Sequence record: OX457022 | Direction: 5' to 3' (one strand) | DNA from: Escherichia phage vB_EcoP-CC1 | Length of the DNA: 44,532 nucleotides | Part shown: one piece after another, positions 8,741 to 28,857 of the stretch | How positions within the stretch are numbered: position 1 is the first letter of the stretch | Layout of the letters: every line of letters begins with the position of its first letter | Notes under the pieces: generated by a model | Told to the model about the DNA's origin: nothing | What the model saw: only the letters and a program-made list of their open reading frames with translations | The model's database searches: none | Program-made: the position numbers and the translations under genes

Positions 8741-9481
8741 ATGCCTTTAATTCAAAATACAAGTGATGTTGGACGTATCATGGCTGAGGCTTCCTTCAAT
8801 ATCATTGATAGCAAACTGGAAGCAGTTAACCTGTGTATGCGAGCTATCGGTCGTGAGGGTGTGGATTCCCTTGACTCTGGCGACTTAGATGCTGAAGATG
8901 CTAATAAGATTATTGATATTGTCTCACAACGTTTCCAGTACAATAAAGGTGGTGGTTGGTGGTTTAACAGGGAACCTAATTGGCTGCTTAAACCTGATAC
9001 CAACGGCGAAGTGAATATGCCAAACAATTGCCTTGCGGTACTCCAGTGTTACGCCCTAGGTGAACGTAAAGTACCTATGACTATACGAGCAGGCAAGTTG
9101 TATTCTGTTTGGAATCACACTTTCGACATGTCAAAGTATGTGAATCAGGATGGGCGTATTAGGTTGACTCTGGTAACATTACTACCTTTTGAGCATCTAC
9201 CTGCAAGTGTTATGCAAGCTATTGCCTATCAAGCTGCCGTAGAGTTTATTGTGTCTAAGGATGCTGATAAGACTAAGTTACAAGCACACCAGCAGATCGC
9301 AGCACAGCTTATGATTGATGTTCAGTCAGAGCAGTCTTCTCAGAAGAGACTCAATATGCTTGTACATAACCCTACTCAGCGCAACTTCGGAATCATGGCA
9401 GGTGGCTCACAGAATGTACCAGCATTCTCCTATTCCCCTTATGATACTTACCCTGTAAGGCCGTGGGAGGTTGATCGCTGA
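8741..9481 (+). CDS. tail tubular protein A
   Basis: 246 aa directly after capsid and before large tail tube gene; RBS AGGAGGG. Confidence 0.75.
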   Translation: MPLIQNTSDVGRIMAEASFNIIDSKLEAVNLCMRAIGREGVDSLDSGDLDAEDANKIIDIVSQRFQYNKGGGWWFNREPNWLLKPDTNGEVNMPNNCLAVLQCYALGERKVPMTIRAGKLYSVWNHTFDMSKYVNQDGRIRLTLVTLLPFEHLPASVMQAIAYQAAVEFIVSKDADKTKLQAHQQIAAQLMIDVQSEQSSQKRLNMLVHNPTQRNFGIMAGGSQNVPAFSYSPYDTYPVRPWEVDR

Positions 9482-11886
9482 TGGAAGTGCAAGGCTCATT
9501 AGGTCGTCAGATTCAAGGTATTAGCCAACAACCAGCAGCAGTGCGGTTAGATGGGCAATGTACCGATATGGTTAATATGGTTCCAGATGTAGTCAACGGT
9601 ACACAATCTCGCATGGGGAGTGTGCACATTGCAAAGCTACTGGACTCCGGCAGTGACAATATGGCAACACATCACTATCGAAGAGGCGATGGTGATGAGG
9701 AATACTTCTTTGTTTTAAAGAAAGGTAGTTTGCCGGAAATCTTTGACAAGCAAGGCCGTAGGTGTAATGTGACAACAAGGGATGCTCCTTTAGATTATCT
9801 AAAAGAAGTAGTAAATCCACGAGAAGATGTACAGTTTATGACTATTGCAGATGTCACATTTATGCTGAATAGGAGAAAGGTCGTAAAGACAAGGTCTGCA
9901 CGGTCGCCTAAGATCGGTAACACTGCCTTAGTTTTTAGTGCCTATGGTCAGTATGGGACTACATATCGTATAAAGATTAACAACGTTACAGCGGCAGAGT
10001 ACAGAACTGCAAATGGTGGAGAGGCTAGTGACATTAGTACAATCAGAACCGAAAGGATAGCAAGGGAGTTGTATGAGAAACTGCTCGCTTGGGAAGGTGC
10101 TGCCGATTATAAATTCAGTCGTGATGAGAATGTCATAACCATTAGTACTGTGGACGGTTCTACTGATTTTACTGTATCTACTAATGATGGTGCGAAAGGG
10201 CAAGACTTAGTTGCAATTAAATATAAGGTAACGTCTACTGACCTCCTACCTTCTAGAGCACCCGCTGGTTACAAAGTTCAAGTCTGGCCTACAGGAAGTA
10301 AACCAGAGTCCAGATATTGGCTAGAAGCAGAGAAGAAAGAAGGCAGCTTGGTTACTTGGAAAGAAACCATTGCAGCAGATGTCCTTCTAGGTTTTGATAA
10401 AGCCACAATGCCTTACCTTATAGAGCGCACAGATATTATAGATGGGATAGCGCAGTTCACTATAAGGCAGGGAGATTGGGAAGACCGCAAGGTTGGTGAT
10501 GACCTCACTAACCCCATGCCGTCCTTCATTGATAAAGAGAACCCACAAACTATAGGCGGCATGTTTATGGTACAGAATAGGCTCTGTGTAACAGCAGGAG
10601 AGGCTGTCATAGCTACTAGGACTTCTGCGTTCTTTGACTTCTTTCGCTACTCAGCAGTGGCTAGCGTTGCTACTGACCCGTTTGATGTGTTCTCAGATGC
10701 AAGTGAAGTCTATCAGCTAAAACATGCAGTTACTCTGGATGGTGCTACGGTCTTATTTGCTAACAGGTCGCAGTTTACAATCCCTGGAGATAAAGTACTG
10801 GAGAAGTCAAACATCGTATTACAACCAGCGACCACCTTCGAAGTTGACAACAGGGTTCCTCCTGTGGCAACGGGTGAGTCTGTGATGTTTGCTACTAGTG
10901 AGGGTGCTTACTCTGGTATCCGTGAGTTTTACACAGATTCATATAGCGATACGAAGAAGGCACAGGCTATTACTAGTCATGTGAATAAGTTGATACAAGG
11001 TAACATCACTCACATGGTTGCCAGTACCAATATTAACAGGCTACTCGTGATTACAGACAAAGACCCCAATATCGTCTATTGTTATGATTGGTTGTGGCAA
11101 GGGACAGACCGTGTACAATCCGCATGGCATAAGTGGGTGTGGCCTAAAAATACTCTGATACGATCTATGTTCTACTCTTCGGAGGCTTTGTATCTTCTAG
11201 TAGAAAGAGGCAATACGGGTGTCTACTTAGAGGTGATGGATATGGGGGATGCCCTCACATACGGATTGGTTGATAGGATAAGATTAGATAGGCAGGCAGA
11301 GCTTATCTTTACTTATGACTCTTACAACTCCCAGTGGGTATCAAATCCTTTACCTTGGATACCAACAGACACTACATTGCTAGATTGTGTACTGACCACA
11401 GGGTGGCCTGCTTATATTGGTGGGGCTTTTGGTTTCGAATATGATGCAGGTAGCAACACACTACGGACTACATTTGATTTAGCTGATGAGCAATCTAACG
11501 CTATCGTAGTGGTCGGACAGTTGTATCAACAGGAGTTTGAACCTACGCAAGTGGTTATCAGGGATAATCAAGATAGAGTCTCCTATATAGATGTACCTGT
11601 GGTTGGGTTAGTGCACCTTAATCTGGATAAATACCCTGACTTTGAAGTGCACATTAAGAATTTGAAAAGTGGAAAGGTGCGAAAAGCACTAGCCTCTAAT
11701 CGCAAAGGTGGTGCACTGAATAACATCGTGGGATATGTTAAACCTGAAGAGGGTTCTTTTAAGTTCCCCCTTAGGTCGCTAAGTACCGACACGGTTTATA
11801 GGATAGTTGTCAAATCACCTCACACTTTTCAACTAAGAGATATTGAGTGGGAGGGTTCGTATAACCCAACTAAGAGGAGGGTATAA
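9481..11886 (+). CDS. tail tubular protein B
   Basis: 801 aa, size and position match T7 gp12-type; start overlaps preceding stop. Confidence 0.8.
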   Translation: MEVQGSLGRQIQGISQQPAAVRLDGQCTDMVNMVPDVVNGTQSRMGSVHIAKLLDSGSDNMATHHYRRGDGDEEYFFVLKKGSLPEIFDKQGRRCNVTTRDAPLDYLKEVVNPREDVQFMTIADVTFMLNRRKVVKTRSARSPKIGNTALVFSAYGQYGTTYRIKINNVTAAEYRTANGGEASDISTIRTERIARELYEKLLAWEGAADYKFSRDENVITISTVDGSTDFTVSTNDGAKGQDLVAIKYKVTSTDLLPSRAPAGYKVQVWPTGSKPESRYWLEAEKKEGSLVTWKETIAADVLLGFDKATMPYLIERTDIIDGIAQFTIRQGDWEDRKVGDDLTNPMPSFIDKENPQTIGGMFMVQNRLCVTAGEAVIATRTSAFFDFFRYSAVASVATDPFDVFSDASEVYQLKHAVTLDGATVLFANRSQFTIPGDKVLEKSNIVLQPATTFEVDNRVPPVATGESVMFATSEGAYSGIREFYTDSYSDTKKAQAITSHVNKLIQGNITHMVASTNINRLLVITDKDPNIVYCYDWLWQGTDRVQSAWHKWVWPKNTLIRSMFYSSEALYLLVERGNTGVYLEVMDMGDALTYGLVDRIRLDRQAELIFTYDSYNSQWVSNPLPWIPTDTTLLDCVLTTGWPAYIGGAFGFEYDAGSNTLRTTFDLADEQSNAIVVVGQLYQQEFEPTQVVIRDNQDRVSYIDVPVVGLVHLNLDKYPDFEVHIKNLKSGKVRKALASNRKGGALNNIVGYVKPEEGSFKFPLRSLSTDTVYRIVVKSPHTFQLRDIEWEGSYNPTKRRV

Positions 11887-12611
11887 TGGCGATAATGGCG
11901 ACAGTAGGGTCAAGCCTAGCCAGCATGTTCTCCAGTAGTGCAGGTGCTGCGGCTGCTAGTAGTGCTGCTGGTAGTGCCGCCGCTGGAAGTGGTGGTGTAC
12001 TTGGCTCTATCGGAAGTTTCTTAGGTGGAAGCTCTGCTGGCTTTTCTAATGCAGGTTTGTTGTCTGCTGGACTACAAGGCTTAAACTTACTAGGCGGTCT
12101 ATTCGGTGGACGAGATACCGCTAAGGCTATGCAGAAAGCACAAGAAGAAGAATGGAGACAAAGGCTAGAAGCCACACGTGAAGCCTATTCTTCTGTGGCA
12201 GATGCAGAGCGGGCTGCTGCAAAGCAATATCATTCTGACTTCCTTAGTAATCAAATTTCACTGATGCAGCAACGAGCGCAAGTTGCAGTAATGGCAGGCG
12301 CTACTGGAACAGGTGGTAGCTCCATCACATCCATGCTCAATGATTTGACGGCAGAAGGCGGTCGCAATCAGTCAACCATTATAGATAATTATGAGAATCA
12401 GCAAATCAACTTTGCCAACCAGTTGAAGTCTATTCAACGCAGTGGACAGATGCAGATGCGAACGTTTGACAAACCTTCCGCTTTGGGTACTTTGGTGAAA
12501 GGAATACCAAGCATTGCATCTTCCTATGTCACCGGAAGTAAAGCAGGTATGGCACTTGGCAAGGCTATCACTGAGTCTCGTACTTATTCATCAGGAACTA
12601 GAGGAGTTTAA
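11886..12611 (+). CDS. internal virion protein (gp14-like), Gly/Ala/Ser-rich
   Basis: 241 aa, low-complexity Ala/Gly/Ser N-terminal half; first of three consecutive internal-core genes. Confidence 0.65.
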   Translation: MAIMATVGSSLASMFSSSAGAAAASSAAGSAAAGSGGVLGSIGSFLGGSSAGFSNAGLLSAGLQGLNLLGGLFGGRDTAKAMQKAQEEEWRQRLEATREAYSSVADAERAAAKQYHSDFLSNQISLMQQRAQVAVMAGATGTGGSSITSMLNDLTAEGGRNQSTIIDNYENQQINFANQLKSIQRSGQMQMRTFDKPSALGTLVKGIPSIASSYVTGSKAGMALGKAITESRTYSSGTRGV

Positions 12612-15554
12612 ATGGCAATTGAACGTCAAGCTGTACAAGGACTAGAAAGAGTACAGTCAAGGGGCGCGCCAACACCTATGTCTTTCACACCACGACAAGT
12701 GAGTATCTCAGGGGGCGCGGATGCCTCCGGTAGTAGATTTTTGGAAGACTTAGTAAACGCTGCAAGTAGTGTGGCTGATGTCACTACTGCTATCCTTAAT
12801 CAGCAAGTAGAAGACGATAAGGTTCGCCAGATGGATAGGGCTTTATCTGGCATGATGCCTTCTGAGGATGCTACGGTAGGTGGTGCTCGTGCGCATATGC
12901 TGGTTAGTTTACAAAATGATGTAATCGCACAGACAACTGCGCTACAAGTAGAAGCACAGCGATTTCAAGGTAGTGACGAGGATTGGGAAAACTATGTAGT
13001 TCAATCTCGTAATGAGGTACAAAATAGGTTATGGCAAAGTTATCCAGAGCTTCGTGGTGACAAAGATTCTATGAGACTTGTCACTAACGCGTTCATGGAG
13101 CAGCAACCTAGAATTACTGCAACTAGAGCAGAGGCTAAACTTCGTCAAGAAGAAGAAGCACGAATGCAATCTATGCAGTCTCGTATTATCATGGCTACAC
13201 GGGACGTAGCGCCAGATGCCACTGGTGCAGCACTCATCCAGTTACAAAAAGAAGCACTGGCGATGGGTCTTAGTAAACCTGAGTTTGATCAGATGGTTGC
13301 TAAGATTGCATCTGACAGAGCGGCAGTAGGAGATGATAGTCTTATTCAGGGAACCAAAGCACTGGTGGATGATAAGGGTGTCTCTTTGTATGACCGTGTT
13401 GGTGCTTTGCAAACTGGAGAGATTCAAGCTAACAGAGCTTGGGCTGCGCAGAATCAGGTTGCCCTCTTTGAGAAGAAGGATGCAGCTATAAAGGCATTCG
13501 ATGCAGGGCAACTTACTCGTGAAGAGTTACTTCAGGTGATGCAGAATCACAATGAATTGACTGGTGGTACTGCTTGGTCTGATAGCGAGATCAAGGCTAT
13601 CTTCGATAGGCAAGCTAAGGCTAATGCAGAGAAAGCAAAGCTCGAAGATCTTATTGCACGAGGTGAATCTGGGTCGCCTTTAGGTTTACAGGATATTAGT
13701 AAGGATGACAGAAAATCCTATGCTGAAGCCTTAGTTAGTACCTACACTAAGTTGGCAGAAGATGAAATTGCCCGTACTGGTGCAACGGGAGAACAGGCTG
13801 AAGCTATTCGCGGTAGGTATGAGCAGATGCGTTATCTTAAATTAGGGCAACAACTTATTGAAGACCCAATCATTAAGGAAAGATATTCGTCGCTTATGCA
13901 ATTATCCTCTGCCAACCTTAAAGATATGAATGTTGAGCCTGAAGCATTACAGACCATCATGCGAGCGCGGGACTCTATTCCAGAGGATGCACGTCGTGCT
14001 GTCATGGGAGACAAAGAGTATGCCTTTGTAGAGAACTACGACCTAGCAACTCGCATGGGGTATAACGCAGGTCAAGCTATTGAGTTTGCACAGAATGCCT
14101 CTCGTGGAGAGAAGCTACAAGGTTCTGTACTTAAAGAACTGAATGATGATGTAGATGGAGTTGTAAGTGATGTGGCAGGAGGTAGTTGGCTTACTCGTGG
14201 CGATAATATGAGTGAGATGGGTCGTGACATTATGATGGAGGAGGCAAGTACAATTGCGAGAGCAATGAAGGTTGCAGGTCATAATAATGACACGATTAAA
14301 CGTCATCTTAAATCCTATTTGACGAGCCAGTATACACAGTTATCAGAGGGCTTCTTCACCCAAGGTGTTCTGGTGAAAGGTGATGTACGAACATTAGGTG
14401 ACACTATAGGAGTAAACCAGAATGACCTTCCTATGGCGCTACGTCAATATATGGATAACAACAAGCAAGCACTTCTTGATGCATCAGGTGGCTTAGAAGA
14501 GGGTGATTTGTATTTTGATGTAGATGCGCAGCGGGGACTCTTTACCATACGTGCAGGGTCTGGTCGTGTACCTGTTACGCAGGCAATGCCTTTGTCTGAA
14601 ATCAAAGGGCAGTCCTTGCTTAAGCAAAGATATGATGCAGAGGTTAAAGCCCGTGATGAGGGGCGTAAGAATTTTGAAGCACAGCAAATGAGGATGTGGG
14701 GCGCAGGTGGCTACCAAGCACAACCACCTGCAAAGACTACAGCCAAAACTGTAGGCTCCCGTGGGATTGCTGACTTCTTAATGTCACCTGCCTTTGCATC
14801 AGGCGAGAATCTACCAGCAAACTTTGAGTTTGGATATAAGAGGAATAATATGGACTTCTACAATTATGTAGCCAAGATGGAGAATAATGCCAATGTGGGC
14901 TTTGACCGAGTAGCTGGTGTTTATACACCATACAAAGATGCACATGGTCAATCTGTCGGGTACGGTCACTTCCTTACTACTGAAGAGAAGAAGAACGGAT
15001 ACATTATGATTGGTACAGAGAAAGTGCCATTCACTCCGGGACAATCTCAATTAACACCAGAACGAGCCATGCGCCTTCTACAGCAAGACTTGAAGAGTCA
15101 TGTGCCAAACACTTCAGGGTGGGCTGTTCCATTCGAAGAGATGCACCCAGGTGTTCAGCGTGGCCTTATGGACTTGTCCTATAATTTAGGCAAAGGAGGT
15201 ATCCAGAATGCACCTAAAGCCTATGTTGCGTTTAAGGCTGGCAAGTTTACTGATGGATTTATTGAGATGTTATCTACTGCATCTACTGAAGGTAAGCGTA
15301 GTACTGGGTTGTTGGTTCGTAGAGCAGAAGCATACAACCTTGCACAGAGTGGAGGTGCTATTCCTAAGATTAGTGAAGTAGAGACACGAGCCGATGGGTC
15401 TATGTATGTTAAGTTTGCAGGACAGATGTCAGAGGCTTTCGTAAATAAATCAATCTACAATCAGATTGGTAAGGATGGATGGCTGCAAGTGTACCCTCCA
15501 AAACAAGGTGTACTTGCACCTAACACCAAGATTGGTAGAATCAAACTAAGCTAG
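12612..15554 (+). CDS. internal virion protein with lysozyme-like (T4-lysozyme-type) domain
   Basis: 980 aa; residues ~760-900 contain YKDAHGQSVGYGHFLT, closely resembling T4 lysozyme YKDTEGYYTIGIGHLLT. Confidence 0.75.
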   Translation: MAIERQAVQGLERVQSRGAPTPMSFTPRQVSISGGADASGSRFLEDLVNAASSVADVTTAILNQQVEDDKVRQMDRALSGMMPSEDATVGGARAHMLVSLQNDVIAQTTALQVEAQRFQGSDEDWENYVVQSRNEVQNRLWQSYPELRGDKDSMRLVTNAFMEQQPRITATRAEAKLRQEEEARMQSMQSRIIMATRDVAPDATGAALIQLQKEALAMGLSKPEFDQMVAKIASDRAAVGDDSLIQGTKALVDDKGVSLYDRVGALQTGEIQANRAWAAQNQVALFEKKDAAIKAFDAGQLTREELLQVMQNHNELTGGTAWSDSEIKAIFDRQAKANAEKAKLEDLIARGESGSPLGLQDISKDDRKSYAEALVSTYTKLAEDEIARTGATGEQAEAIRGRYEQMRYLKLGQQLIEDPIIKERYSSLMQLSSANLKDMNVEPEALQTIMRARDSIPEDARRAVMGDKEYAFVENYDLATRMGYNAGQAIEFAQNASRGEKLQGSVLKELNDDVDGVVSDVAGGSWLTRGDNMSEMGRDIMMEEASTIARAMKVAGHNNDTIKRHLKSYLTSQYTQLSEGFFTQGVLVKGDVRTLGDTIGVNQNDLPMALRQYMDNNKQALLDASGGLEEGDLYFDVDAQRGLFTIRAGSGRVPVTQAMPLSEIKGQSLLKQRYDAEVKARDEGRKNFEAQQMRMWGAGGYQAQPPAKTTAKTVGSRGIADFLMSPAFASGENLPANFEFGYKRNNMDFYNYVAKMENNANVGFDRVAGVYTPYKDAHGQSVGYGHFLTTEEKKNGYIMIGTEKVPFTPGQSQLTPERAMRLLQQDLKSHVPNTSGWAVPFEEMHPGVQRGLMDLSYNLGKGGIQNAPKAYVAFKAGKFTDGFIEMLSTASTEGKRSTGLLVRRAEAYNLAQSGGAIPKISEVETRADGSMYVKFAGQMSEAFVNKSIYNQIGKDGWLQVYPPKQGVLAPNTKIGRIKLS
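14392..14413 (+). promoter_or_regulatory. promoter-like sequence inside coding region (CATTAGGTGACACTATAGGAG)
   Basis: Matches SP6-type consensus better than this phage's class I promoters; lies inside the 980-aa gene (codons GDTIGV); function unproven. Confidence 0.3.
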
Positions 15555-15570
15555 TGGTATACTCAAGGTT

Positions 15571-15588
15571 TGTCTCACATGTGAGACA
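15571..15588. repeat. 18-bp perfect palindrome TGTCTCACATGTGAGACA
   Basis: 16 nt after stop of 980-aa gene; member of palindrome family; flanked by AAGG...CCTT. Confidence 0.9.
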
Positions 15589-15621
15589 TGCCTTTATGAA
15601 TGACACTGACTAGGAGGTAAC

Positions 15622-18600
15622 ATGGTTGATAGTATTAACCAAAACTGGGTGGCGGTGACTCAACGCAAGTTACCGCCTACCTTCTCTCAAATTGCTGAAG
15701 CTGAGCGTAAGGCTGAAGCCCAGAGAGCTAATGATAAAGTGTTTCAAACAGCATTAGAAAGTGAGTGGGCTTTATATGGCGGACAACGTGCCTATGAACG
15801 CCACACTACAGAGTTTGCTGAACAAGAAGGCTATGAAGTGCCTGAGTCAACTAAGGATGAGTTATCCAAGTTGTATGGGTATGAAATAGCGCAAGACATA
15901 GTTAAGAATGTAAAGTCTCCAGAAGAGTTGCAATTCCGTATGTCTAATGCTGCTGCTGATAAAGACAGAGCAGACATCTTAGCACGTAATGGTTTCACGG
16001 GTTTCAGCGCGCAGATTGCTGCTGGCATCCTTGACCCTGTAGGTTGGGCTGCATCCTTAGTGGCTGCGCCTGTAGCGGGTGCTGTCAAAGTAGGTAGGCT
16101 AGGTAGGATTATCAAGACGGCTGCCTTATCAGGTGCTGAAAATGCTGCATTAGAAGCTATACTTGCACAAGGTGATTACCAGCGAGGGGTTGATGATGTA
16201 CTGGCTGCTGCCGGATTTGGTATGATTATGGGCGGCACTATTGGTGCTGCAACCAGAGAGCGCATAGCCAGTGCTGGTTCTCGTACAGCGGCAGAACGAG
16301 CAGATGCTGTAGTTGATGACTTGGACACTGTAGTAAAAGGTGCTGATGAATTTGACTCGTCTGCGGCTCGTGCTGTACGTGAAGCTATGGAATATGACGC
16401 GTATATGGCAGCGCGTAATTACGAACCACTTCGTGCAAGAGAGGTAGATGCAGACATGGCGATTCTGTCTCACACAGACAATTTGAAAGCCAATGCATCG
16501 GTAAGGATGAGTGCTAGTGAGAAGGGGCAACTGAAGAAGCAGATACGTCAGCTTGAAGCAGAAGCAGCAACACTTAAAGGGAAGAAGATAGACACTGTAG
16601 CGGAAGCTGCGGCTGCTAAGGGTGCACCTAAATCTGCTGCTGACAGATTAGATTTGGATGTTCAGAAGAAAGCATTAGCACGTAGATTTGATGAACCACT
16701 GGCAGACTTACAAGCGCGTCTTGATGAGTTGAATGCTAAATTGTCTCGTGTAAACAATGTAGGCAAAGCCAAGGAAGAGCTTAAGAGATTCTCATCGCTA
16801 TCTCGTGAAGAGCAAATAAAGGAGTTAGGTCTAGACGCACCAGTGCGCAAGGTAGAGATGACCCGTGCCGTGCGAGATGCAATTGACGCAATCCGTGCCG
16901 AGCGTAAGAAGACGCCTACCGAAATACATGCTGAACAAGTCGCAGAAGATGCAATTAAGCAAAGGGCAGACGACTCTGTTGGTGCTAAACGTGTTGAAGG
17001 TTCAGAGATTGCAGGTGAACAGTTTGACCTATCTAAAAACATGGAAGAACTTATGGATGACTTGGCACGAGAAGCATACCAGTCAGAGGTGCGGCCTATT
17101 AATCTTAAGGGTTTAGGTTCAGTGTCTTCTGTGATTCTTAACTCAGAGAATCCTGTGTTCCGAGGCCTAGGTCTTCGTCTGCTTGAAAATGCTCAAGGTG
17201 GTGCATATCAAGGTAAGACAGCTTCTATCTTATCAGATGTGTATGGCAACCTTATTCGTCATGCAGAACGTAACAGATACAATGATGGCTTCTCTCAGTT
17301 CATCAAAGATAATAACCTACGTGCGGTAGACTATCTTAACCCTGCAACGACAAGGGATTTCAATAATCAGATTTATACAGCAATTGTTCGTGGCATACCA
17401 GAAGATACACCTCGTGGTGTTAAACTGGCAGCCGAAGGTATTGCAGATAAGCTCAAGAAAGCACTGGAGATTCGTAAGCAAGCAGGTGAGCGAGGCTTCG
17501 AGGATGTGCAATCTGCTAAAGATTATATTCCCGTTATCTACGATGGTATCAAGATCACAGAGGCAGTTAACAAGTTAGGTAGTAGTGAAGCTGTCATTCA
17601 CTTGCTATCTAAAGGGTATCAGACAGGCAAGTACAAACTTGGCAAGAAAGCTGCTGATGCACTAGCCAAAGTTCAGTATATTCGCGCATCTGACTCCACC
17701 CTCTCTAGTCGTGTTGCATTCGATAGGGTGGTATCCCAGCAGCAGCAGGCTCAATTGATTGAGGATCTGAAGAAAGCAGGAGTACCAGACCATATCATTG
17801 ATAATTTCATTGAAGGTACGGAATTAGCAGAAATGGCTGAATCGGTATCCAATCGAGCTAAAGCTAGTATGGGTATTAATACGCAAGCCGAATATGGCGG
17901 TTTGAAGGTGCAGGATTTGCTTAATACAAACGTAGGCGAGCTAGCTGAGAACTACGGCAAAGAGGCAGCAGGCGGTGCTGCATTAGCTGCCATGGGTTTC
18001 CCCACTCGCCAGTCTGTGCTGAATGCGATAGATGCCGCAGAACGCGCAGGTCGTAATATGGCGGGGTCAAATGCTAAGGCAATCAAACAGCTTAGGGCTG
18101 AGGCAGAAATGCTCAGAGATGCCGTTAAGCTCATTTACGGCAACACTATTGACGCCGACCCTAACTCTGGAATTGTCAGGGGCACTCGACGTGTCCGTGA
18201 GATTACAGGCTTGTTACGATTGGGTCAAATGGGCTTCGCTCAGATACCAGAACTGGCACGTGCAATCTCTAAGATGGGATTAGGTACTGTGCTGAAGTCC
18301 ATACCTGCCACGAAGTTCTTACGTTCAAGGGCGGCTCGTAAGGGAGGAACAGCTCAAGGTGAATTACTTGAACCTGAACTGCGAGAAATGGAGGAACTCT
18401 TAGGCTATATCGGGGAAGATAACTGGCTTACAGGGTGGAACGTCCGTCATGATGAGTTCGGAGAAACTGCTGATAACCTAGGTAAGCTGTCTGCTATTAT
18501 TGATAACGGATTAGCTATGGGTAGTAGAATCAACACAATACTCTCTGGATTTAAAGCAGTACAAGGTGGTTCAGAGAAAATTGTAGCTCGCTCTATCAAT

Positions 18601-19425
18601 AAGAGATTAAAGCAGCACTTGATGGGTGAGAGACAATTACCTAAAGCAGACCTTGAAGAAGTAGGCCTAAGTGAAGATGTCATGAAAAGACTTAAGCGTC
18701 ACTTTGATGACAACCCTCTGTACGCTGAGTACAATGGAGAAAAAGTTCGTATGCTGAACTTTGATGCTATGGAGCCAGACCTGAGAGAGACAGTGGGTGT
18801 TGCTGTGCGAAGAATGTCAGGCCGTCTTATTCAACGTAACTTCATTGGCGATGAAGGTATCTGGATGAATAAATGGTGGGGTAAGGCATTAACGCAGTTT
18901 AAGTCATTCTCTATTGTCTCTATTGAGAAACAGCTAATCCATGATTTACGAGGTGATAAGATTCAGGCTGCACAGATACTTGCATGGTCTACTTTACTAG
19001 GTTATGCATCTTATGCACTACAGATGCAGATGCAAGCGATTGGTAGGGAGGATAGAGACAAGTTCTTGAGGGATAAGTTTGACACACAGAACATCGCTAT
19101 GGGTGTCTTTAATAAACTTCCACAAGTTGCAGGCTTTGGTTTAGCTGGTGATGCTTTGGCAACCTTTGGCCTAATGCCAGACTCCATGATGCAAGCACCG
19201 GGACGCATGGGTTTCCGTCAGCAAGGCTTTGGGGATTTGGTAGCAGGTGCTGGTGTAATAAGTGATACAGTTAATTTGTCACAAGCACTGGTTAAGTATG
19301 CCAGTGGAGACGATGATGTCTCTACGAGGCAGTTGGTAGACAAGGTTCGTCGCCTTGTTCCTTTGGCAAATACTATTGGTGTGGGTCAGATGACTAAAGC
19401 CAGTGTAGATTTATTGGAGGATTGA
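15622..19425 (+). CDS. internal virion protein (gp16-like, large ejection protein)
   Basis: 1267 aa, third internal-core gene, RBS AGGAGG; size close to T7 gp16. Confidence 0.75.
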   Translation: MVDSINQNWVAVTQRKLPPTFSQIAEAERKAEAQRANDKVFQTALESEWALYGGQRAYERHTTEFAEQEGYEVPESTKDELSKLYGYEIAQDIVKNVKSPEELQFRMSNAAADKDRADILARNGFTGFSAQIAAGILDPVGWAASLVAAPVAGAVKVGRLGRIIKTAALSGAENAALEAILAQGDYQRGVDDVLAAAGFGMIMGGTIGAATRERIASAGSRTAAERADAVVDDLDTVVKGADEFDSSAARAVREAMEYDAYMAARNYEPLRAREVDADMAILSHTDNLKANASVRMSASEKGQLKKQIRQLEAEAATLKGKKIDTVAEAAAAKGAPKSAADRLDLDVQKKALARRFDEPLADLQARLDELNAKLSRVNNVGKAKEELKRFSSLSREEQIKELGLDAPVRKVEMTRAVRDAIDAIRAERKKTPTEIHAEQVAEDAIKQRADDSVGAKRVEGSEIAGEQFDLSKNMEELMDDLAREAYQSEVRPINLKGLGSVSSVILNSENPVFRGLGLRLLENAQGGAYQGKTASILSDVYGNLIRHAERNRYNDGFSQFIKDNNLRAVDYLNPATTRDFNNQIYTAIVRGIPEDTPRGVKLAAEGIADKLKKALEIRKQAGERGFEDVQSAKDYIPVIYDGIKITEAVNKLGSSEAVIHLLSKGYQTGKYKLGKKAADALAKVQYIRASDSTLSSRVAFDRVVSQQQQAQLIEDLKKAGVPDHIIDNFIEGTELAEMAESVSNRAKASMGINTQAEYGGLKVQDLLNTNVGELAENYGKEAAGGAALAAMGFPTRQSVLNAIDAAERAGRNMAGSNAKAIKQLRAEAEMLRDAVKLIYGNTIDADPNSGIVRGTRRVREITGLLRLGQMGFAQIPELARAISKMGLGTVLKSIPATKFLRSRAARKGGTAQGELLEPELREMEELLGYIGEDNWLTGWNVRHDEFGETADNLGKLSAIIDNGLAMGSRINTILSGFKAVQGGSEKIVARSINKRLKQHLMGERQLPKADLEEVGLSEDVMKRLKRHFDDNPLYAEYNGEKVRMLNFDAMEPDLRETVGVAVRRMSGRLIQRNFIGDEGIWMNKWWGKALTQFKSFSIVSIEKQLIHDLRGDKIQAAQILAWSTLLGYASYALQMQMQAIGREDRDKFLRDKFDTQNIAMGVFNKLPQVAGFGLAGDALATFGLMPDSMMQAPGRMGFRQQGFGDLVAGAGVISDTVNLSQALVKYASGDDDVSTRQLVDKVRRLVPLANTIGVGQMTKASVDLLED

Positions 19426-22400
19426 TGAGTTATACATATACAGACCATGTAGCTAATGGCTCACAGGTTACATTCCCTTTTCGTTTTGCAGGCAGAGATA
19501 AGGCATACATTAGTGCGACAGATGTCCAAGTGGGTTTTGTAGAAGCAGGCACTTGGCTGCCAGCAACAGGTTGGACGCTAAGTGGCACCAATCAGATCAC
19601 TTTCTTAACCCCACCGACAGAAGGTAAACAAATACGAATCAGACGTATTGTAGATAAAATAAACCCATATGCTTACTTCGAGCGGGGTAATGTTTTAGAT
19701 ATTAACTCTTTAAATAACTCATTCATTAAGAACCTGCAAGTCAGTCAAGAAATCCTTGATGGCTTCTTCCCAGAAGGTTTCTACTTCAAGACAGACTTAG
19801 ACATGGGTGGTCATAAGATCATAAACCTACATGAAGGTTCGGAGTCAGGTGATGCTGTAAATTATGATCAGTTTAAAGAGTTATCAGACCGCGTTAATGA
19901 GATTGAGTCAGATTTAACAGGTTTATCTCACAGAACAGTACCTATGTATTATATTGCAACTGGCGGAGAGTCACGTTGGGAGATCGGTCACTGGACTTTC
20001 GACGCTGCAATATTATTTATTAATGGTATATTCCAGAACCAAAACCTAGGAGCTTTTACCATCAGCAACAACGGTTTTAACTTTGCAGAACCATTGCAGA
20101 AGGGGGATGAAGTATATGCCCTTGTAGGAAGCCGCATTGCAGCACCCGATGAGTATGTAACAATCTCTGACTTGAAAGACCCAGATAAAGCATGGAGGCT
20201 AATTGGACGTAAGTACCCATTTGCGACAGATGGAACTTTTATGTCAAAAGTGGTACATGATGTAGACTACTCCAATATCTTCATTGGAGCATCAGGACTT
20301 AGTCAAGGCTTCTGTATTGTAGACACTCCGCAAGGTGCTCGCATGTTCTTCCATCAACCTATCCCAAGCACTAATAAGGTTCGTTTCGTTGAAACAACCT
20401 TTAACCCTGAAGGGGATAATGAAAATCCTTCTGTTATTTCATTCAGCCAGGAACTGGATGATATTGGACACCAGACTGTGTGTGGTGTATATGAGGCGGG
20501 GGGTGTGCGTTTGTACACCTTGAGTGCAGATGAAAAATCTTATTATATCATAGATTGGTTAGGTAATAATACGTCTAATGCACATATGCGTAAGGTGCAG
20601 ATCCCTACGGAGGGTATCTACTCTAAGGACTTATTTGTCTCAGTGGGCATGTCAGAAGATACTAAAACGCTGGTATTCCATGCAACCACCAATACTCAGG
20701 CTTTTGGTAACAAGGATGATGCGAGAGCTATTTACCTCTTCGATAGAAAAACATTGGATTCAACCTCAACTAGAGGTCTTAAGCGTAGATTCGAAGTAGG
20801 AGCACCTGCTGCACCAGATATGGTCTTCCAAGGGGTTGCTTGTGATGACCGCTTCTTGTATATATATCAGGGATATAATGGTGTCCTGCTGTCTCACAAG
20901 ATCTCCGTCTTCACCCTCTCAGGGGAGCATGTACGGGATATTCCCGTTGATAGTGTGCGTGTAAAATATGGAGAAAGGATGTATGGTGACGAAACTTTAG
21001 GGTATCCTGTATTGCAGGAACCGGAAGGTTTGGCAATGTATAAAGGCAAACTTTATATGTTGTGTATGGATTTCTGGTACAAGAATGCAAGTGTAGTTAC
21101 TTTCGCTGGCAGGACTTTTGCTACAAGGAAATCTTCAGCGTTTTCTGGGTACAGTCCATTACAAGCATCATATTGGACACCTACGAACCTAATACCACCT
21201 ACGGGTGCACCAGAGTATAACAAGACTGCTACTTATTCCTGCTCTAATGCTACTAAGCTCAGTAAAGCTATTGTTAGCTTAGAAATAGATGATGGCACAG
21301 GCTTCCCTGCAAGTGTTGGGTGTTCTTTGCCAGAGAGTAGCGCCAGTGTATACCTAAACAACCGAGCGATGAATATGGCTATTGGCCCGAATGAAAACTT
21401 CCAGTTTGGGGTATTTCACCAGAACCTACAGTCATACAAAAACCTGTTACAGCTCAATAGAGAGAACCCAAATACGGATGGATCAGCGGCTGTGTGGAGG
21501 TTGTTCGGAGGTGCGTTCACAGATGACATTCAGAATGAAAGATTTGTTCAGATTAAGCATAGACTTAATCCCACACAAGATGCCATGGAGCTTCGTGCGG
21601 ATGTTGACCTTACGAGCGGTGGTGGGATTAACTTGTATTCTATGAACGACTCTGCCTCTCCTGGTCGAGTAAGGCTATATTGTACTGACGGGTATTCTTA
21701 TTGGTCAGCTCTACTGAGTCCTGTATCCCCATCTTTTCACCCTGATCAAGATAAGACTCTAAACTTAGGTACAGCAAACAACCGTTGGAACCTAGTCCAT
21801 TGTCAAGGTATCCGTATCATCTCTAACGACGAGTTACAGAAGCAAGTCTTTCTTGAAACTACCCGTAAAAAAGGTGCACTACAGATCTCCACTTCCGGCA
21901 ATCTAGGGGTGTGGGATAGTAGCGCAGGTACTTATGTTGTGGCAACCAGACCTGATGGTACAGGCTTTTCACAGGTAGAGATGAGCTTCAAAGGTGATGT
22001 TTTTCCTGAAATAAATAATACTTACAATTTAGGTCGTGAGAATAAGGCATGGGCTAATGCCTACTTTCAAAACGCACCGACTGTTGTCTGTGATGCCAGA
22101 CTTAAAACAGATGCTAGGGAGTTAACAGACGCAGAGAAATCCGCATTCTTAGAGATCTCTAAACTTCCGGCAGTTTGGCAATGGCTTGCTAAACTGGAAG
22201 TAGAAGGAGAGGATGCCCGCTTACACTCTGGATGTACTGTCCAAGCTGCTATCTCGGTTATGGAGAAACATGGCCTAGATTGGACTAAGTATAGTGCTTT
22301 CTGTTATGACAAATGGGATGCCAAGGAGGCTGTCTATGATATAGTGGATGGTAAGGCTATCCTTGTTGAAGAGGCAGTTGAGGCTGGCGACCGTTATCGT

Positions 22401-22508
22401 CTTCGTAGAGAAGAGCTGATGTGGTGGTGCATGAAGGCACAGAATGCTTGGATTGAATCTATTGAGGGGAGGCTGGCGAAATTAGAAGATAAACTCAAGG
22501 AGGTGTAA
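19422..22508 (+). CDS. tail fibre/tailspike with T7 gp17-like N-terminal attachment domain
   Basis: 1028 aa; position of T7 gene 17 and N-terminal region loosely resembles recalled gp17 attachment domain (no motif checked); C-terminal CDARLKTDARELTDAEKSAF resembles S74 intramolecular-chaperone motif; probable depolymerase body. Confidence 0.8.
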   Translation: MMSYTYTDHVANGSQVTFPFRFAGRDKAYISATDVQVGFVEAGTWLPATGWTLSGTNQITFLTPPTEGKQIRIRRIVDKINPYAYFERGNVLDINSLNNSFIKNLQVSQEILDGFFPEGFYFKTDLDMGGHKIINLHEGSESGDAVNYDQFKELSDRVNEIESDLTGLSHRTVPMYYIATGGESRWEIGHWTFDAAILFINGIFQNQNLGAFTISNNGFNFAEPLQKGDEVYALVGSRIAAPDEYVTISDLKDPDKAWRLIGRKYPFATDGTFMSKVVHDVDYSNIFIGASGLSQGFCIVDTPQGARMFFHQPIPSTNKVRFVETTFNPEGDNENPSVISFSQELDDIGHQTVCGVYEAGGVRLYTLSADEKSYYIIDWLGNNTSNAHMRKVQIPTEGIYSKDLFVSVGMSEDTKTLVFHATTNTQAFGNKDDARAIYLFDRKTLDSTSTRGLKRRFEVGAPAAPDMVFQGVACDDRFLYIYQGYNGVLLSHKISVFTLSGEHVRDIPVDSVRVKYGERMYGDETLGYPVLQEPEGLAMYKGKLYMLCMDFWYKNASVVTFAGRTFATRKSSAFSGYSPLQASYWTPTNLIPPTGAPEYNKTATYSCSNATKLSKAIVSLEIDDGTGFPASVGCSLPESSASVYLNNRAMNMAIGPNENFQFGVFHQNLQSYKNLLQLNRENPNTDGSAAVWRLFGGAFTDDIQNERFVQIKHRLNPTQDAMELRADVDLTSGGGINLYSMNDSASPGRVRLYCTDGYSYWSALLSPVSPSFHPDQDKTLNLGTANNRWNLVHCQGIRIISNDELQKQVFLETTRKKGALQISTSGNLGVWDSSAGTYVVATRPDGTGFSQVEMSFKGDVFPEINNTYNLGRENKAWANAYFQNAPTVVCDARLKTDARELTDAEKSAFLEISKLPAVWQWLAKLEVEGEDARLHSGCTVQAAISVMEKHGLDWTKYSAFCYDKWDAKEAVYDIVDGKAILVEEAVEAGDRYRLRREELMWWCMKAQNAWIESIEGRLAKLEDKLKEV

Positions 22509-25625: not shown

Positions 25626-26315
25626 ATGCTGGGAGTAACAGGACAACGCAATAAGAATGTAGCCACCAAAGTAGTGGCTGATTTAGCTACTGCTGCTACT
25701 GTCGAGGAATTACGAGACACACATAACTCTATTAACCGTGCTGACCTTTCTGGTAAACAAGAAGGTTCTGTTGTTCTTGTTAAGAAAGAGGATGGCAACT
25801 ATTCTATCTTTGTAGCAACAGGTAGCAAGCCTACTGATGTTTGGAAAGAGTTGTCTCCAACAATACCAGAGCAAGAGATGCCTGCTGAATATATTGATAT
25901 GGTTGATATTCAAATTCATCAAGACTCTGCAAGTAACTTACGTATGGATTCTTCTCGCACGAGCTTAATACAAACACCAATGTGGGATACTGAAGGTGAA
26001 TTGCTATTCCGTAATACCCTGAGCGCAACATGTTCTTGTACCATTCTTGCTGACGGTGCATCTGGTGTTCGTCAGGATTTTAATTTTAAGATTAATGGAA
26101 TCTTAGAGCAAGAAGAGCAGTATTATGACATTGACACTCTTATGTGCTCTATTCATTCTGCAACAACAACTAATGGTCTTACACTGTGTATGCCAGATGT
26201 TAAGAGCGCAAAGACCAATAAGATGGTAGTAAAGGTCGACACTATGCAGTCATTAACAATGAGTTTTGATCTTAACTTCCTTGTTGAATGGACGTCACCT
26301 ACGAGGTTACTATAA
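25626..26315 (+). CDS. hypothetical protein, paralog 3 of 3 with ~150-aa C-terminal extension
   Basis: 229 aa; N-terminal 80 aa carries the shared block (LSGKQEGSVVLV...IFVATGSKPTDVW). Confidence 0.6.
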   Translation: MLGVTGQRNKNVATKVVADLATAATVEELRDTHNSINRADLSGKQEGSVVLVKKEDGNYSIFVATGSKPTDVWKELSPTIPEQEMPAEYIDMVDIQIHQDSASNLRMDSSRTSLIQTPMWDTEGELLFRNTLSATCSCTILADGASGVRQDFNFKINGILEQEEQYYDIDTLMCSIHSATTTNGLTLCMPDVKSAKTNKMVVKVDTMQSLTMSFDLNFLVEWTSPTRLL

Positions 26316-26659
26316 TGCTAAACGAATACTTCAAGCGTAAAGAATTTGCTTGCCGTTGTGGGTGCGGTACATCCACTGTTGATGCTGAGTTACTACAGGT
26401 AGTAACAGATGTGCGTGAGCACTTTGGTGCTCCTGTGGTTATTACTTCTGGTCATCGTTGCGCCAAGCACAATGCTAATGTAGGTAGAGCTAAGAACTCC
26501 ATGCATCTTACTGGTAAGGCTGCTGACATTAAGGTCACTGGTGTTAGCCCAATGGAGGTACGTGCGTACCTATGCAATAAGTACACTGATAAGTATGGCA
26601 TTGGTGCTTATCCTACTTTTACACATATCGACGTTAGAGGTAACAAAGCACGATGGTAG
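26315..26659 (+). CDS. endolysin, peptidase M15-like (zinc D-Ala-D-Ala carboxypeptidase family)
   Basis: 114 aa from ATG 26315 (TAATG overlap with upstream stop); motif SGHRCAKHNANVGRAKNSMHLTGKAADI resembles M15 His/Asp zinc-binding signature. Confidence 0.6.
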   Translation: MLNEYFKRKEFACRCGCGTSTVDAELLQVVTDVREHFGAPVVITSGHRCAKHNANVGRAKNSMHLTGKAADIKVTGVSPMEVRAYLCNKYTDKYGIGAYPTFTHIDVRGNKARW

Positions 26660-27233: not shown

Positions 27234-27255
27234 ATTTACTGGACACTATAGAAGG
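27234..27255 (+). promoter_or_regulatory. phage RNAP promoter class I (ATTTACTGGACACTATAGAAGG), +1 G at 27251
   Basis: Family consensus 83 nt upstream of second tailspike ATG. Confidence 0.8.
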
Positions 27256-27333
27256 AGAGATAGTGCCGTTCATTTGAGCGGCCTATTACTAGCCAATCTT
27301 CATGGTGAGGGTTGGGAAGTAATAGGAGATAAC

Positions 27334-28857
27334 ATGGCTAAACTAACGAGAGTCACTGACTGGCTTGTTAAGGTAAAGTCCAGACTCACTGGTGCAGTAG
27401 AGCGACTGCTTGAAGATAAGTTAAATGACACGGTTAGTGTTAAGGACTTCGGTGCTAAGGGTGACGGTGTGACAGACGACACACAAGCATTTGCTGCCGC
27501 CTCAGCCGCATCGCCTCAAGGTGTTTATGTGCCTGACGGAACATATTTATTACCAGAAGATATTAATGGCAGGTTCTATGGTTCTGGTAAACGCATCAAG
27601 GCTGTAGGTGATGGTGGTATTCCTTTTACCAATGTAGCTCAGTCACATAGTAACCTAATATTAGGATATGATGCTGCAAAGGATTACACGGACGAAGGGA
27701 AAGGCAACCAATTAGTATTACTTGGCCCAAGCTCCGGTCGTAACCTTACCACTGGTACTAACTCCATTGTGGTAGGTGTTGGTGGCCTATCGGGTGATAC
27801 ATTAGAAGATGCACTAACAGATAAATCACCTTTCACTGGTACAGAGATTATTAGCATTGGTATCAATGCTCTTAAGAAAACTACCACTGGTAACAACATG
27901 ATTGGTATTGGTCGTGATGCCCTGAACGAGTGTAAGGATGGAAGATTCAACGTAGCTATAGGTATGTCTGCTTTGCAGCAGCTACACTCTGGTGAGGCTA
28001 ACGTAGCAATAGGGCGTTCAGCCGGTATGCGTACTGGCATCTTCACTAACGAAGATGGTGTACGATTAGGCTATACAAAATGTAGCGGTAATACCTTAAT
28101 AGGTAACGCGGCTGGTCGTGAATTGAAGTCAGGTAATCATAACACCGCCGTAGGCAATGGTGCTATGCGAGGTGTCAGTTCTGATATTAATCCATATACT
28201 GGCACTCTAGAGGGTAATTTTAATACAGCTATTGGTGTTGATACCTTAAACTCCTTAGCATCTGGTGAGTTGAACACCATGATTGGCGCAAGGGCTGGGC
28301 GTAAATTACCTAGTGGCTCTGGTAACATCTTCATCGGTGCGGATGCAGGTGCAGGTATTAACATTGAAAAGTCTAACACTCTCATTATTAACAACCACAC
28401 TGGCTTACCTTTCGTAGAAGGTATTATGGATGGTGCTCAGAGTGAGAATAACTACTTACGTGTTGATGGAAGTGTAGCACCTCAGATTGATAACACAAGA
28501 ACTTGTGGTCAGTCTAGCCGTAGATGGCAGACTGTCTTTTCTACCAATGGTGTTATCCAGACATCGGATGGACGATGCAAGGATGTCTACGATATTGCCA
28601 AGACGGAGTACATGGCTGGTCTAGAGTTATCTTCTAGTATGATTAAGTTCAAATGGACAGATACTAAAGAAGATAAGTATCACTTCGGTTGTCTGGCACA
28701 AGAGGTCATGCTGATTATGGAGAAACATGGGTTAAACCCTCTGGATTATTCCCTCGTTACCTATGATGCTGAAGCAGATATGTATGGTGTTAACTATGCA
28801 GAATTGTCTTGCTTCTGTATCGCAGCAATGTCCAATCATGTACTAGGCAGTGCGTAA
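27334..28857 (+). CDS. tailspike with pectate-lyase-like beta-helix and C-terminal S74-like chaperone domain
   Basis: 507 aa from ATG 27334 (AGGAGA RBS); motif VKDFGAKGDGVTDDTQAF typical of pectate-lyase-fold depolymerases; C-terminal SDGRCKDVYDI chaperone-like motif. Confidence 0.8.
   Translation: MAKLTRVTDWLVKVKSRLTGAVERLLEDKLNDTVSVKDFGAKGDGVTDDTQAFAAASAASPQGVYVPDGTYLLPEDINGRFYGSGKRIKAVGDGGIPFTNVAQSHSNLILGYDAAKDYTDEGKGNQLVLLGPSSGRNLTTGTNSIVVGVGGLSGDTLEDALTDKSPFTGTEIISIGINALKKTTTGNNMIGIGRDALNECKDGRFNVAIGMSALQQLHSGEANVAIGRSAGMRTGIFTNEDGVRLGYTKCSGNTLIGNAAGRELKSGNHNTAVGNGAMRGVSSDINPYTGTLEGNFNTAIGVDTLNSLASGELNTMIGARAGRKLPSGSGNIFIGADAGAGINIEKSNTLIINNHTGLPFVEGIMDGAQSENNYLRVDGSVAPQIDNTRTCGQSSRRWQTVFSTNGVIQTSDGRCKDVYDIAKTEYMAGLELSSSMIKFKWTDTKEDKYHFGCLAQEVMLIMEKHGLNPLDYSLVTYDAEADMYGVNYAELSCFCIAAMSNHVLGSA

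Follow-up and report, generated by a model that had tools for sequence, protein, structure and literature searches.

A GH24 lysozyme domain at the C-terminus of a gp15-like internal virion protein of Escherichia phage vB_EcoP-CC1

Introduction

Does the 980-aa product of a gene labeled 'hypothetical protein' carry the enzyme with which Escherichia phage vB_EcoP-CC1 opens the host cell wall on entry, and if so, which enzyme is it and on which of the ejection proteins does it sit? The window analyzed here is the whole stretch of 44,532 nucleotides in record OX457022. A preliminary description, made from the letters of this DNA, had placed a domain resembling T4 lysozyme near the C-terminus of the middle protein of the internal core, contrasting it with the lytic transglycosylase at the N-terminus of T7 gp16. 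The reading favored here, with a probability of roughly 0.9, is that a GH24 muramidase domain is fused to the C-terminus of a gp15-like ejection protein and cuts the host wall while the DNA is being injected. The same idea can already be found in the literature on SP6, K1-5/K1E, and phiKMV-like phages.

Identity of the phage and the gene

The window is 100% identical to Escherichia phage vB_EcoP-CC2 and represents an SP6-like phage (Autographiviridae/Molineuxvirinae). The gene in question, a 980-aa open reading frame (12612..15554, + strand), is 100% identical to that in OX638290.1; the identical GenBank record labels it 'hypothetical protein', probably because Pfam is silent on the full-length protein, for which a scan returned no family at E ≤ 0.01. 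Its product shares 81% amino acid identity with SP6 gp36 over 979 aa (75% at the nucleotide level) and matches phrog_4290, 'lysozyme domain-containing protein', with E = 0 from residue 1 to 979 (profile positions 1–969), so that homology to the SP6 gp36/K1-5 gp35 group is full-length and collinear. The 980-aa protein is the orthologue of SP6 gp36 and K1-5 gene 35. Full-length homologues number 45 (34–100% identity); recovering them required a full-length query, since the domain by itself retrieved no more than five fragments in a word-indexed search.

SP6 gp36, K1-5 gene 35, and K1E gp35 have the same size (978–982 aa) and the same gene order, and the three orthologues differ from the protein studied here in sequence divergence only, with no substantive difference. 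SP6 gp36 (NP_853596.1) carries the identical YKDAHGQSVGYGHFLT motif described below, and K1-5 gene 35 is about 60% identical over the C-terminal 246 aa. A difference is found in the neighboring tail-fiber gene, which encodes 1028 aa here, whereas SP6 and LL11 have an adaptor of 319 aa.

The lysozyme domain

The GH24 (T4/P22-type) lysozyme domain occupies residues ~742–915 (14835..15356, + strand). When the C-terminal 280 aa were scanned alone, PF00959 (Phage_lysozyme) matched residues 771–906 with E = 8.1e-8 and 33.1 bits, above the gathering cut-off of 22.3 bits, and precomputed PF00959 matches are present on most homologues of the protein. PHROG endolysin families match the same region at E values of 1e-8 to 1e-10. 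Searches of the PDB gave fainter signals: a family profile of 28 sequences retrieved T4 lysozyme chains only, at weak E values of at least 0.005, and a single-sequence phmmer search yielded one marginal GH24 match (E = 0.77), while NCBIfam had no match for the full protein, the lysozyme domain, or the C-terminal tail. Identity to T4 lysozyme (T4L) is low, at 15–20%. The domain has the two-lobed fold of T4 lysozyme, its top structural matches are muramidases, and its closest structural relatives are true endolysins such as R21, DLP12 RrrD, and P22 gp19. The match to T4 lysozyme is thus confirmed as well beyond chance, and the lysozyme fold on which the preliminary description depended was found. 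That description had also set the domain at 14850–15300 (residues 747–897), which is right as to place and slightly short in extent: the domain reaches about residue 915 (nt 15356), leaving the last helix, GLLVRRAEAYNLA, outside that interval.

The motif YKDAHGQSVGYGHFLT (residues 774–789; 14931..14978, + strand), read directly from the sequence, aligns with T4 lysozyme residues 18–34 (YKDTEGYYTIGIGHLLT), sharing nine identical positions with one 1-residue gap, and so does mirror it as had been proposed. The predicted catalytic general acid is Glu757 (codon GAG, 14880..14882, + strand), which is invariant in all 28 homologues compared (34–100% identity) and belongs to an invariant 'EN' with which the first domain helix ends, where the catalytic Glu of GH24 enzymes is expected. 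From its position relative to the motif we infer that Glu757 corresponds to T4L Glu11, and a MAFFT alignment puts the two one column apart. Both residues associated with the hydrolase subtype have counterparts in the T4L alignments, namely, Asp776 (codon 14937–14939, + strand) at the position of Asp20 and Ser781 (codon 14952–14954, + strand) at that of Thr26. The Asp776 column holds Asp in 20 of the 28 homologues, and the other eight all bear a 4-residue insertion at this point, which in five cases itself contains Asp residues (DSD). Ser, Thr, or Asn occupies position 781 across the family, and G783, G785, and H786, the G-x-G-H core, are invariant.

The lysozyme domain is followed by a conserved β-rich tail (residues ~918–980; 15363..15551, + strand), delineated from the AF2 model and conservation. 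Its strands are modeled at residues 920–925, 931–935, 957–961, and 975–978 with pLDDT >90, its invariant residues are D928, G929, F935, G956, W957, and G975, and it is found in 50 of the 69 relatives that have both body and lysozyme. Neither Pfam nor NCBIfam contains a family that matches the tail.

The protein body and its neighborhood

Residues ~1–700 (12612..14711, + strand) form an α-helical body according to the AF2 model (pLDDT 80.5, mostly helical) and Foldseek; residues 1–90 are predicted to be disordered. With the predicted monomer model as query, the top three PDB matches in Foldseek are all T7 gp15 chains (9jyy_G, E = 4.1e-7; 7k5c_A, 2.6e-6; 6yt5_A, 3.2e-5), each at a probability of 1.00, with 665–726 aligned columns; the matching part is roughly the first 670 residues. 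The global TM-scores are low (0.25–0.27), which is unsurprising when a long, flexible, helical chain is modeled as a monomer. No sequence similarity to T7 gp15 was detected by BLASTP of the 980-aa protein (best E = 1.5), and no T7 gp15 chain was matched when the family sequence profile was searched against the PDB; very low mutual identity among gp15-like proteins is documented in published comparisons (PMC8954989). Judged from the predicted structure, the body is homologous in fold to T7 gp15, the protein of the periplasmic tunnel. Body and lysozyme behave as modules among relatives: 69 combine the two, 70 have a body without a lysozyme, and 57 a lysozyme without the body; those with the body and no lysozyme are mostly 640–790 aa long.

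The genes run in the order nozzle, T7_gp14, 980-aa gene, and gp16-like gene. The tail nozzle gene (PF25675) lies at 9481..11886, and a gp14-like internal virion protein gene stands directly upstream of the 980-aa gene (11886..12611, + strand; PF24072 T7_gp14, E = 6e-30; phrog_805). Downstream is the gene for a gp16-like internal virion protein of 1267 aa (15622..19425, + strand; phrog_342, E = 3e-250); a hairpin between it and the 980-aa gene is an unremarkable fold (z = −1.5). The flanking genes, together with the Foldseek matches to T7 gp15, bear out the view that the host of the lysozyme domain is the middle, gp15-position protein of the internal core. Alignments of the gp16-like protein to T7 gp16 and to phrog_342 set in about 200 positions from the start: the phrog_342 alignment begins at profile position 206, and BLASTP pairs residue 77 with T7 gp16 residue 274. 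No PF01464 SLT domain was found by Pfam in the whole 1267 aa or in the first 300 aa, whereas T7 gp16, the positive control, gave PF01464 at residues 15–127 with E = 1.7e-31. The two further elements of the preliminary description therefore stand, that is, a lytic transglycosylase at the N-terminus of T7 gp16 and, in this phage, a different muralytic fold carried by the gp15-position protein and not by the gp16-like one. Elsewhere in the window, a separate candidate endolysin gene encodes a Peptidase_M15_3 protein (26288..26659, + strand; PF08291, E = 3.1e-32), the LL11 orthologue of which is annotated as endolysin and adjoins holin and spanin genes. With this separate M15 enzyme, the GH24 domain would not be needed for lysis from within.

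A possible internal start

A free lysozyme of about 234 aa (Met747–Ser980) might be produced from the gene as an additional isoform, although we regard this as very doubtful. Within the gene, at 14392..14412, is a 21-mer resembling an SP6-type promoter; its core, TAGGTGACACTATAGG, is common to SP6 and disrupted in LL11 by synonymous changes. At 14850, exactly where the GH24 domain begins, is an in-frame ATG with AAGAGGA in front of it at 6-nt spacing; this Shine-Dalgarno-like match is within chance expectation, and Met747 is conserved in the closest relatives only. If such a product were made, the isoform with its conserved β-rich tail could be an accessory lysin or a separately packaged enzyme.

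Comparison with known systems

Virion-associated lysozymes of this kind have precedents. SP6 Gp36 and K1-5 Gp38 are described as such, after Moak & Molineux 2004, in PMC5380687, and K1E/K1-5 gp35 are presented as gp15-like homologues with lysozyme activity in PMC8954989. In phiKMV, gp36 has a C-terminal lysozyme, and activity has been measured for gp36C (PMC5380687); in the phiKMV-like phage Ar-KM, cryo-EM reveals that the gp15-like protein of the core stack carries a T4L-like domain (bioRxiv 10.64898/2026.05.18.726046). Recent work has placed the C-terminal lysozyme of gp15-like proteins in a framework of cryo-EM and comparison that covers 205 Autographivirales genomes, and a 2026 survey found that, of 127 Autographivirales genomes possessing such a domain, 31 have a lysozyme at the C-terminus of the gp15-like protein. 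phiKMV belongs to a different subfamily (Krylovirinae). phiKMV gp36 (NP_877475.1) and Ar-KM gp42 share the architecture found here, an internal virion protein of ~900 aa at the gp15 position in which the T4L-like domain (residues ~740–880) starts with YKDADGYSVGLGH. Similarity between phiKMV gp36 and the 980-aa protein in BLASTP is confined to the lysozyme domain (24% identity, E = 0.001), and phiKMV gp36 lacks both a ~25-residue hairpin insertion (residues 789–812 of the 980-aa protein) and the ~60-aa C-terminal tail.

The gp16 SLT domain and gp15 of T7 presumably do the same work, in that an ejected core protein cleaves murein locally where the periplasmic tunnel forms. The two systems differ in enzyme family (GH24 here versus GH23/SLT in T7 gp16) and in carrier (the C-terminus of the gp15-like protein here versus the N-terminus of gp16 in T7). 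P22 gp19, R21, DLP12 RrrD, and T4 gpe are, in contrast, small free enzymes (146–165 aa) released at lysis, and the domain described here differs from GH24 endolysins and T4 lysozyme by ~10 residues inserted after the catalytic Glu and ahead of the YKD strand, and by the extra tail. T4 gp5 is likewise a virion-borne protein with a GH24 lysozyme domain acting at entry (PMC5380687), but it forms the baseplate spike of a contractile tail, with an OB-fold and a β-helix, and its homology to the 980-aa protein is limited to the lysozyme domain.

Alternative roles and chemistries

It is very unlikely that the domain serves as the endolysin of the phage, or as a second one, and acts from inside the cell when infection ends and not at entry. 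The labels given in LL11 ('putative soluble endolysin' in MH729818.1 and the note 'putative endolysin' in NC_048064.1) would suit that role, as would the kinship of the domain with phage endolysins; however, it is fused to a gp15-like body of ~740 aa within the structural gene block, the M15 peptidase is encoded elsewhere, with the LL11 orthologue beside holin and spanin genes, and SP6 Gp36 is located in the virion according to the literature (PMC5380687). Canonical endolysins are small, free, and encoded alongside holin and spanin, unlike the GH24 domain, and the endolysin role was rejected on the grounds of the ejection-protein fusion and the separate M15 enzyme. Several GenBank records annotate the protein as a baseplate hub or as a T4 gp5-like tail lysin, a role that deserves even less credence: a T7/SP6-type podovirus has no baseplate, its tail genes being gatekeeper and nozzle (PF25675), and the body matches T7 gp15 and not the OB or β-helix domains of gp5. 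These two points led to its rejection, and the baseplate-type labels most likely arose by automatic transfer through the shared GH24 domain.

As to chemistry, GH24 includes both hydrolases and lytic transglycosylases, such as phage lambda R. The domain could accordingly attack the same bond as a lytic transglycosylase and release 1,6-anhydroMurNAc products like lambda R; sequence and fold cannot separate the two chemistries, and the functional counterpart in T7 is itself a lytic transglycosylase. Yet Asp776 and Ser781 at the positions of T4L Asp20 and Thr26 support hydrolysis, the best structural matches are muramidases, and SP6 Gp36 and phiKMV gp36 are classed as lysozymes in PMC5380687, so that we consider transglycosylation unlikely. 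The chance is slimmer still that the domain lacks catalytic activity and acts only as an anchor that binds murein or as a structural spacer that positions the periplasmic tunnel. Replacement of the aligned Asp776 in 8 of 28 homologues and the low identity to T4L are consistent with a loss of activity, and the T7 transglycosylase domain can be dispensed with in many laboratory settings (Moak & Molineux 2000, cited in PMC8954989), but Glu757 and the G-x-G-H core do not vary across 34–100% identity, five of the eight homologues that lack the aligned Asp have one in the adjacent insertion, and muralytic activity is reported for SP6 Gp36, K1-5, and phiKMV gp36C in PMC8954989 and PMC5380687.

Proposed mechanism and significance

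For the favored reading, a GH24 muramidase on a gp15-like ejection protein, virion presence, enzymatic activity, ejection timing, and hydrolase chemistry are what we infer, in part from the literature on the orthologues and on phiKMV as an analogue, and packaging in the internal core, ejection, and assembly of the periplasmic tunnel would follow the picture that cryo-EM has provided for T7 and Ar-KM. Inside the capsid, the 980-aa protein would sit in the internal core, flanked by the gp14-like and gp16-like proteins, and upon adsorption the three core proteins would be expelled via the tail, the gp14-like protein forming the outer-membrane pore and the helical body of the 980-aa protein the periplasmic tunnel. 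The C-terminal lysozyme domain may then hydrolyze the MurNAc-β-1,4-GlcNAc bonds of the murein locally, with Glu757 as the general acid and with Asp776 and Ser781 positioning the water. Through the opened mesh, the tunnel and the gp16-like inner-membrane component could reach the cytoplasmic membrane. The GH24 domain would in this way fill the role of the N-terminal SLT of T7 gp16, absent in this lineage.

Labels in related records vary among 'baseplate hub', 'tail lysin', and 'soluble endolysin', and the annotation that the evidence supports is 'internal virion (gp15-like) protein with C-terminal GH24 lysozyme domain'. Since 2004 the literature has described this C-terminal placement of a lysozyme on gp15-like proteins for podoviruses of the SP6/K1-5 and phiKMV types, and the practical value of the result lies in annotation, with little weight as discovery. 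The locus is a textbook case of domain shuffling among ejection proteins, in which the same function is found on another subunit and with another enzyme family.

Sequence and fold of the lysozyme domain

The 980-aa protein encoded at 12612..15554 (+) ends in a GH24 lysozyme domain followed by a short conserved tail. The preliminary description had noted a motif resembling T4 lysozyme (T4L), and the likeness extends to sequence, family and fold. The motif, YKDAHGQSVGYGHFLT (residues 774-789, nt 14931-14978), pairs with T4L residues 18-34 in a BLASTP comparison of the C-terminal 280 aa with T4L, the alignment running 97 residues (23% identity, E 1e-4, single comparison). Scanning the C-terminal fragment alone gives a PF00959 (Phage_lysozyme, GH24) match over residues 771-906 (E 8.1e-8), whose 33.1 bits exceed the gathering score of 22.3. 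A Pfam scan of the full-length protein reports no family, and such filtering out of the domain probably explains the label 'hypothetical protein' in the identical GenBank record. In PHROGs, the whole protein is assigned to phrog_4290, 'lysozyme domain-containing protein' (E=0), with endolysin families secondary, and a 28-homologue profile searched against the PDB retrieves only T4L chains, weakly (best E 0.005), over T4L 17-133. A 19-sequence alignment yields a confident AlphaFold2 model of residues 735-980 (pLDDT 93.3, pTM 0.88), and all 50 listed Foldseek matches are GH24 lysozymes or T4L fusion constructs (probability 0.96-1.00), identifying the fold as GH24; it is somewhat nearer the P22/lambdoid endolysin type than T4L itself.

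Across 28 full-length homologues (34-100% identity), Glu757, which occupies the T4L Glu11 position within an invariant 'EN' that closes the domain's first helix, is invariant, as are Gly783, Gly785 and His786. Asp776 (T4L Asp20 position) is found in 20 homologues; the other eight have a 4-residue insertion there, with Asp residues inside it in five. Residue 781, at the T4L Thr26 position, varies among Ser, Thr and Asn. Such conservation is what selection on an active enzyme would leave, and not what a decayed domain would show. An in-frame ATG (Met747, nt 14850) coincides exactly with the domain's first helix, with AAGAGGA upstream at a spacing of 6 nt (region 14835..14852, +); Met747 is common to SP6 and one other close homologue (P0007, 81% identity) and missing in more distant ones, and a rough estimate puts the match inside what chance would give.

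The carrier protein and its genomic neighbourhood

By megablast, the gene is 100% identical to its counterpart in Escherichia phage vB_EcoP-CC2 (OX638290.1, 44,531 bp) and 75-99.9% identical to those of a set of SP6-like Autographiviridae (Molineuxvirinae: Vectrevirus and Zindervirus relatives). The ORF map is that of a structural block of the T7/SP6 type, comprising genes for portal, scaffold, capsid, tail tube A, nozzle (PF25675), a 241-aa T7_gp14-family protein (PF24072; 11886..12611, +), the 980-aa protein, a 1267-aa gp16-like protein (phrog_342; 15622..19425, +) and a 1028-aa tail fibre (19422..22508, +). The domain had been placed in the middle internal-core protein, and both gene position and fold agree. 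In the full-length AF2 model (pLDDT 80.5), residues 1-90 are disordered and a long helical body then reaches about residue 700, ahead of the lysozyme domain (residues ~742-915) and a beta-rich tail. The three top Foldseek matches of this model in the PDB are all T7 gp15 chains (E 4e-7 to 3e-5, probability 1.00), namely 9jyy_G, 7k5c_A and 6yt5_A, from entries described respectively as 'core proteins of mature T7', 'T7 DNA ejectosome periplasmic tunnel' and 'gp15-gp16 core complex'. Global TM-scores against T7 gp15 are low, at 0.25-0.27, which is unsurprising for a flexible protein built of helices. BLASTP detects no sequence similarity between T7 gp15 and the 980-aa protein, so the assignment rests on gene position and fold.

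The tail of about 60 aa (residues ~918-980, nt 15363..15551, +) is modelled at pLDDT >90, has invariant D928, G929, F935, G956, W957 and G975, and finds no match in Pfam or NCBIfam. Docking to the gp16-like protein and murein binding are candidate roles.

Several other elements were observed in this region. The coding sequence itself contains an SP6-type promoter-like 21-mer, CATTAGGTGACACTATAGGAG, at 14392..14412 (+), some 420 nt ahead of the lysozyme domain. With <=3 mismatches allowed, the window has nine matches of this kind, versus a chance expectation of 0.01; of the remaining eight, seven have identical 21-mers in the SP6-like phage LL11, as does the eighth (27234..27254), there without one-to-one pairing. 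The core TAGGTGACACTATAGG is present at the equivalent SP6 position and disrupted by synonymous changes in LL11. The element could serve the gp16-like and tail genes further downstream as an internal late promoter; alternatively, it could be a side effect of LGDTIG coding. The spacer between the gp15-like and gp16-like genes holds a hairpin of ~12 bp, trailed by UUUAU, that includes the perfect 18-nt palindrome TGTCTCACATGTGAGACA (15565..15595, +). This element may be a weak terminator or processing site; the fold of the whole spacer is unexceptional (z -1.5; 16 of 200 shuffles fold equally well). The tail fibre combines a T7 tail-fibre N-terminal domain, a Peptidase_S74 chaperone and a weak, sub-threshold 5-bladed beta-propeller match, where SP6 and LL11 have a 319-aa adaptor; a second spike (27274..28857, +) bears pectate-lyase-like and S74 chaperone domains. 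The receptor-binding module is thus unlike that of otherwise >90% identical relatives.

Modularity, distribution and known counterparts

Searching 1.84 billion representatives exhaustively with HMMER produced 200 matches, and the 196 proteins retrieved were re-partitioned by phmmer with body, lysozyme domain and tail as separate queries. All three parts occur together in 50 proteins, body and lysozyme in 19, the body only in 70 (most of them T7 gp15-sized, at 640-790 aa) and the lysozyme in other contexts in 57, indicating an add-on module on a gp15-like scaffold. The tail is present in 50 of the 69 body-plus-lysozyme relatives, and also in a few short lysozyme-only proteins. A tblastn search places the lysozyme domain in 169 phage records, whose hosts include Escherichia, Klebsiella, Salmonella, Proteus, Erwinia and Vibrio; SP6 gene 36 and K1-5 gene 35 are among the matches.

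The preliminary observation is confirmed and its interpretation supported, but the arrangement is not new. SP6 gp36 is 81% identical over its full length and has an identical motif, and its C-terminal lysozyme similarity was reported earlier (Dobbins 2004; Scholl 2004, as cited in PMC4837284). For phiKMV Gp36, a thermostable C-terminal lysozyme domain with measured activity is described (Lavigne 2004; Briers 2006, as cited in PMC5380687); compared directly, this protein is similar in the lysozyme domain only (24% identity, E 0.001), which has the same location and starts YKDADGYSVGLGH, and it lacks the conserved tail. In the phiKMV-like phage Ar-KM, cryo-EM shows residues 740-881 of the gp15-like core-stack protein as a T4-lysozyme-like domain, and in the accompanying survey of 205 Autographivirales genomes, 127 encode an ejection protein bearing a lysozyme or transglycosylase domain, at the gp16-like N-terminus in 86, at the gp15-like C-terminus in 31 and centrally in the gp15-like protein in 10 (10.64898/2026.05.18.726046, 2026 preprint). 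Such an arrangement has been described before and is widespread, and the 980-aa protein is an orthologue of one studied experimentally.

Probable division of muralytic functions

In T7, the muralytic enzyme had been assigned to the N-terminus of gp16, and the positive control T7 gp16 indeed carries the lytic transglycosylase domain SLT (PF01464, E 1.7e-31, residues 15-127), whereas the gp16-like protein of the window, scanned whole and as its first 300 residues, has no Pfam match and hence no SLT. Its alignment to phrog_342 does not start until profile position 206, and its residue 77 pairs with T7 gp16 residue 274 (BLASTP), consistent with a protein that lacks an N-terminal module of ~200 residues. 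That the GH24 domain is instead the phage's endolysin is rejected, as a Peptidase_M15_3 protein is encoded separately at 26288..26659 (E 3e-32), and its LL11 orthologue is annotated as the endolysin and adjoins holin and spanin genes.

The present analysis shows the identity and fold of the domain, its conserved catalytic residues, its fusion to a gp15-like body, the gene neighbourhood, the lack of SLT in the gp16-like protein and the separate endolysin. Beyond this, by analogy with structural work on T7 and phiKMV-like phages and with zymograms of orthologues, the 980-aa protein would be packed in the core stack, be ejected after the gp14-like protein and build a periplasmic tunnel, where its C-terminal GH24 domain would cut glycan strands locally by hydrolysis, allowing the tunnel and the gp16-like protein to reach the inner membrane. 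The presence of Asp776 and Ser781 makes hydrolase rather than lytic transglycosylase chemistry likely, though unproven. In GenBank, the orthologous genes are labelled inconsistently as 'hypothetical protein', 'baseplate hub subunit / lysozyme', 'tail lysin', 'putative soluble endolysin', 'internal virion protein B' or 'lysozyme domain-containing protein', and the main use of the finding is to correct the annotation of this lysozyme-bearing gp15-like gene.
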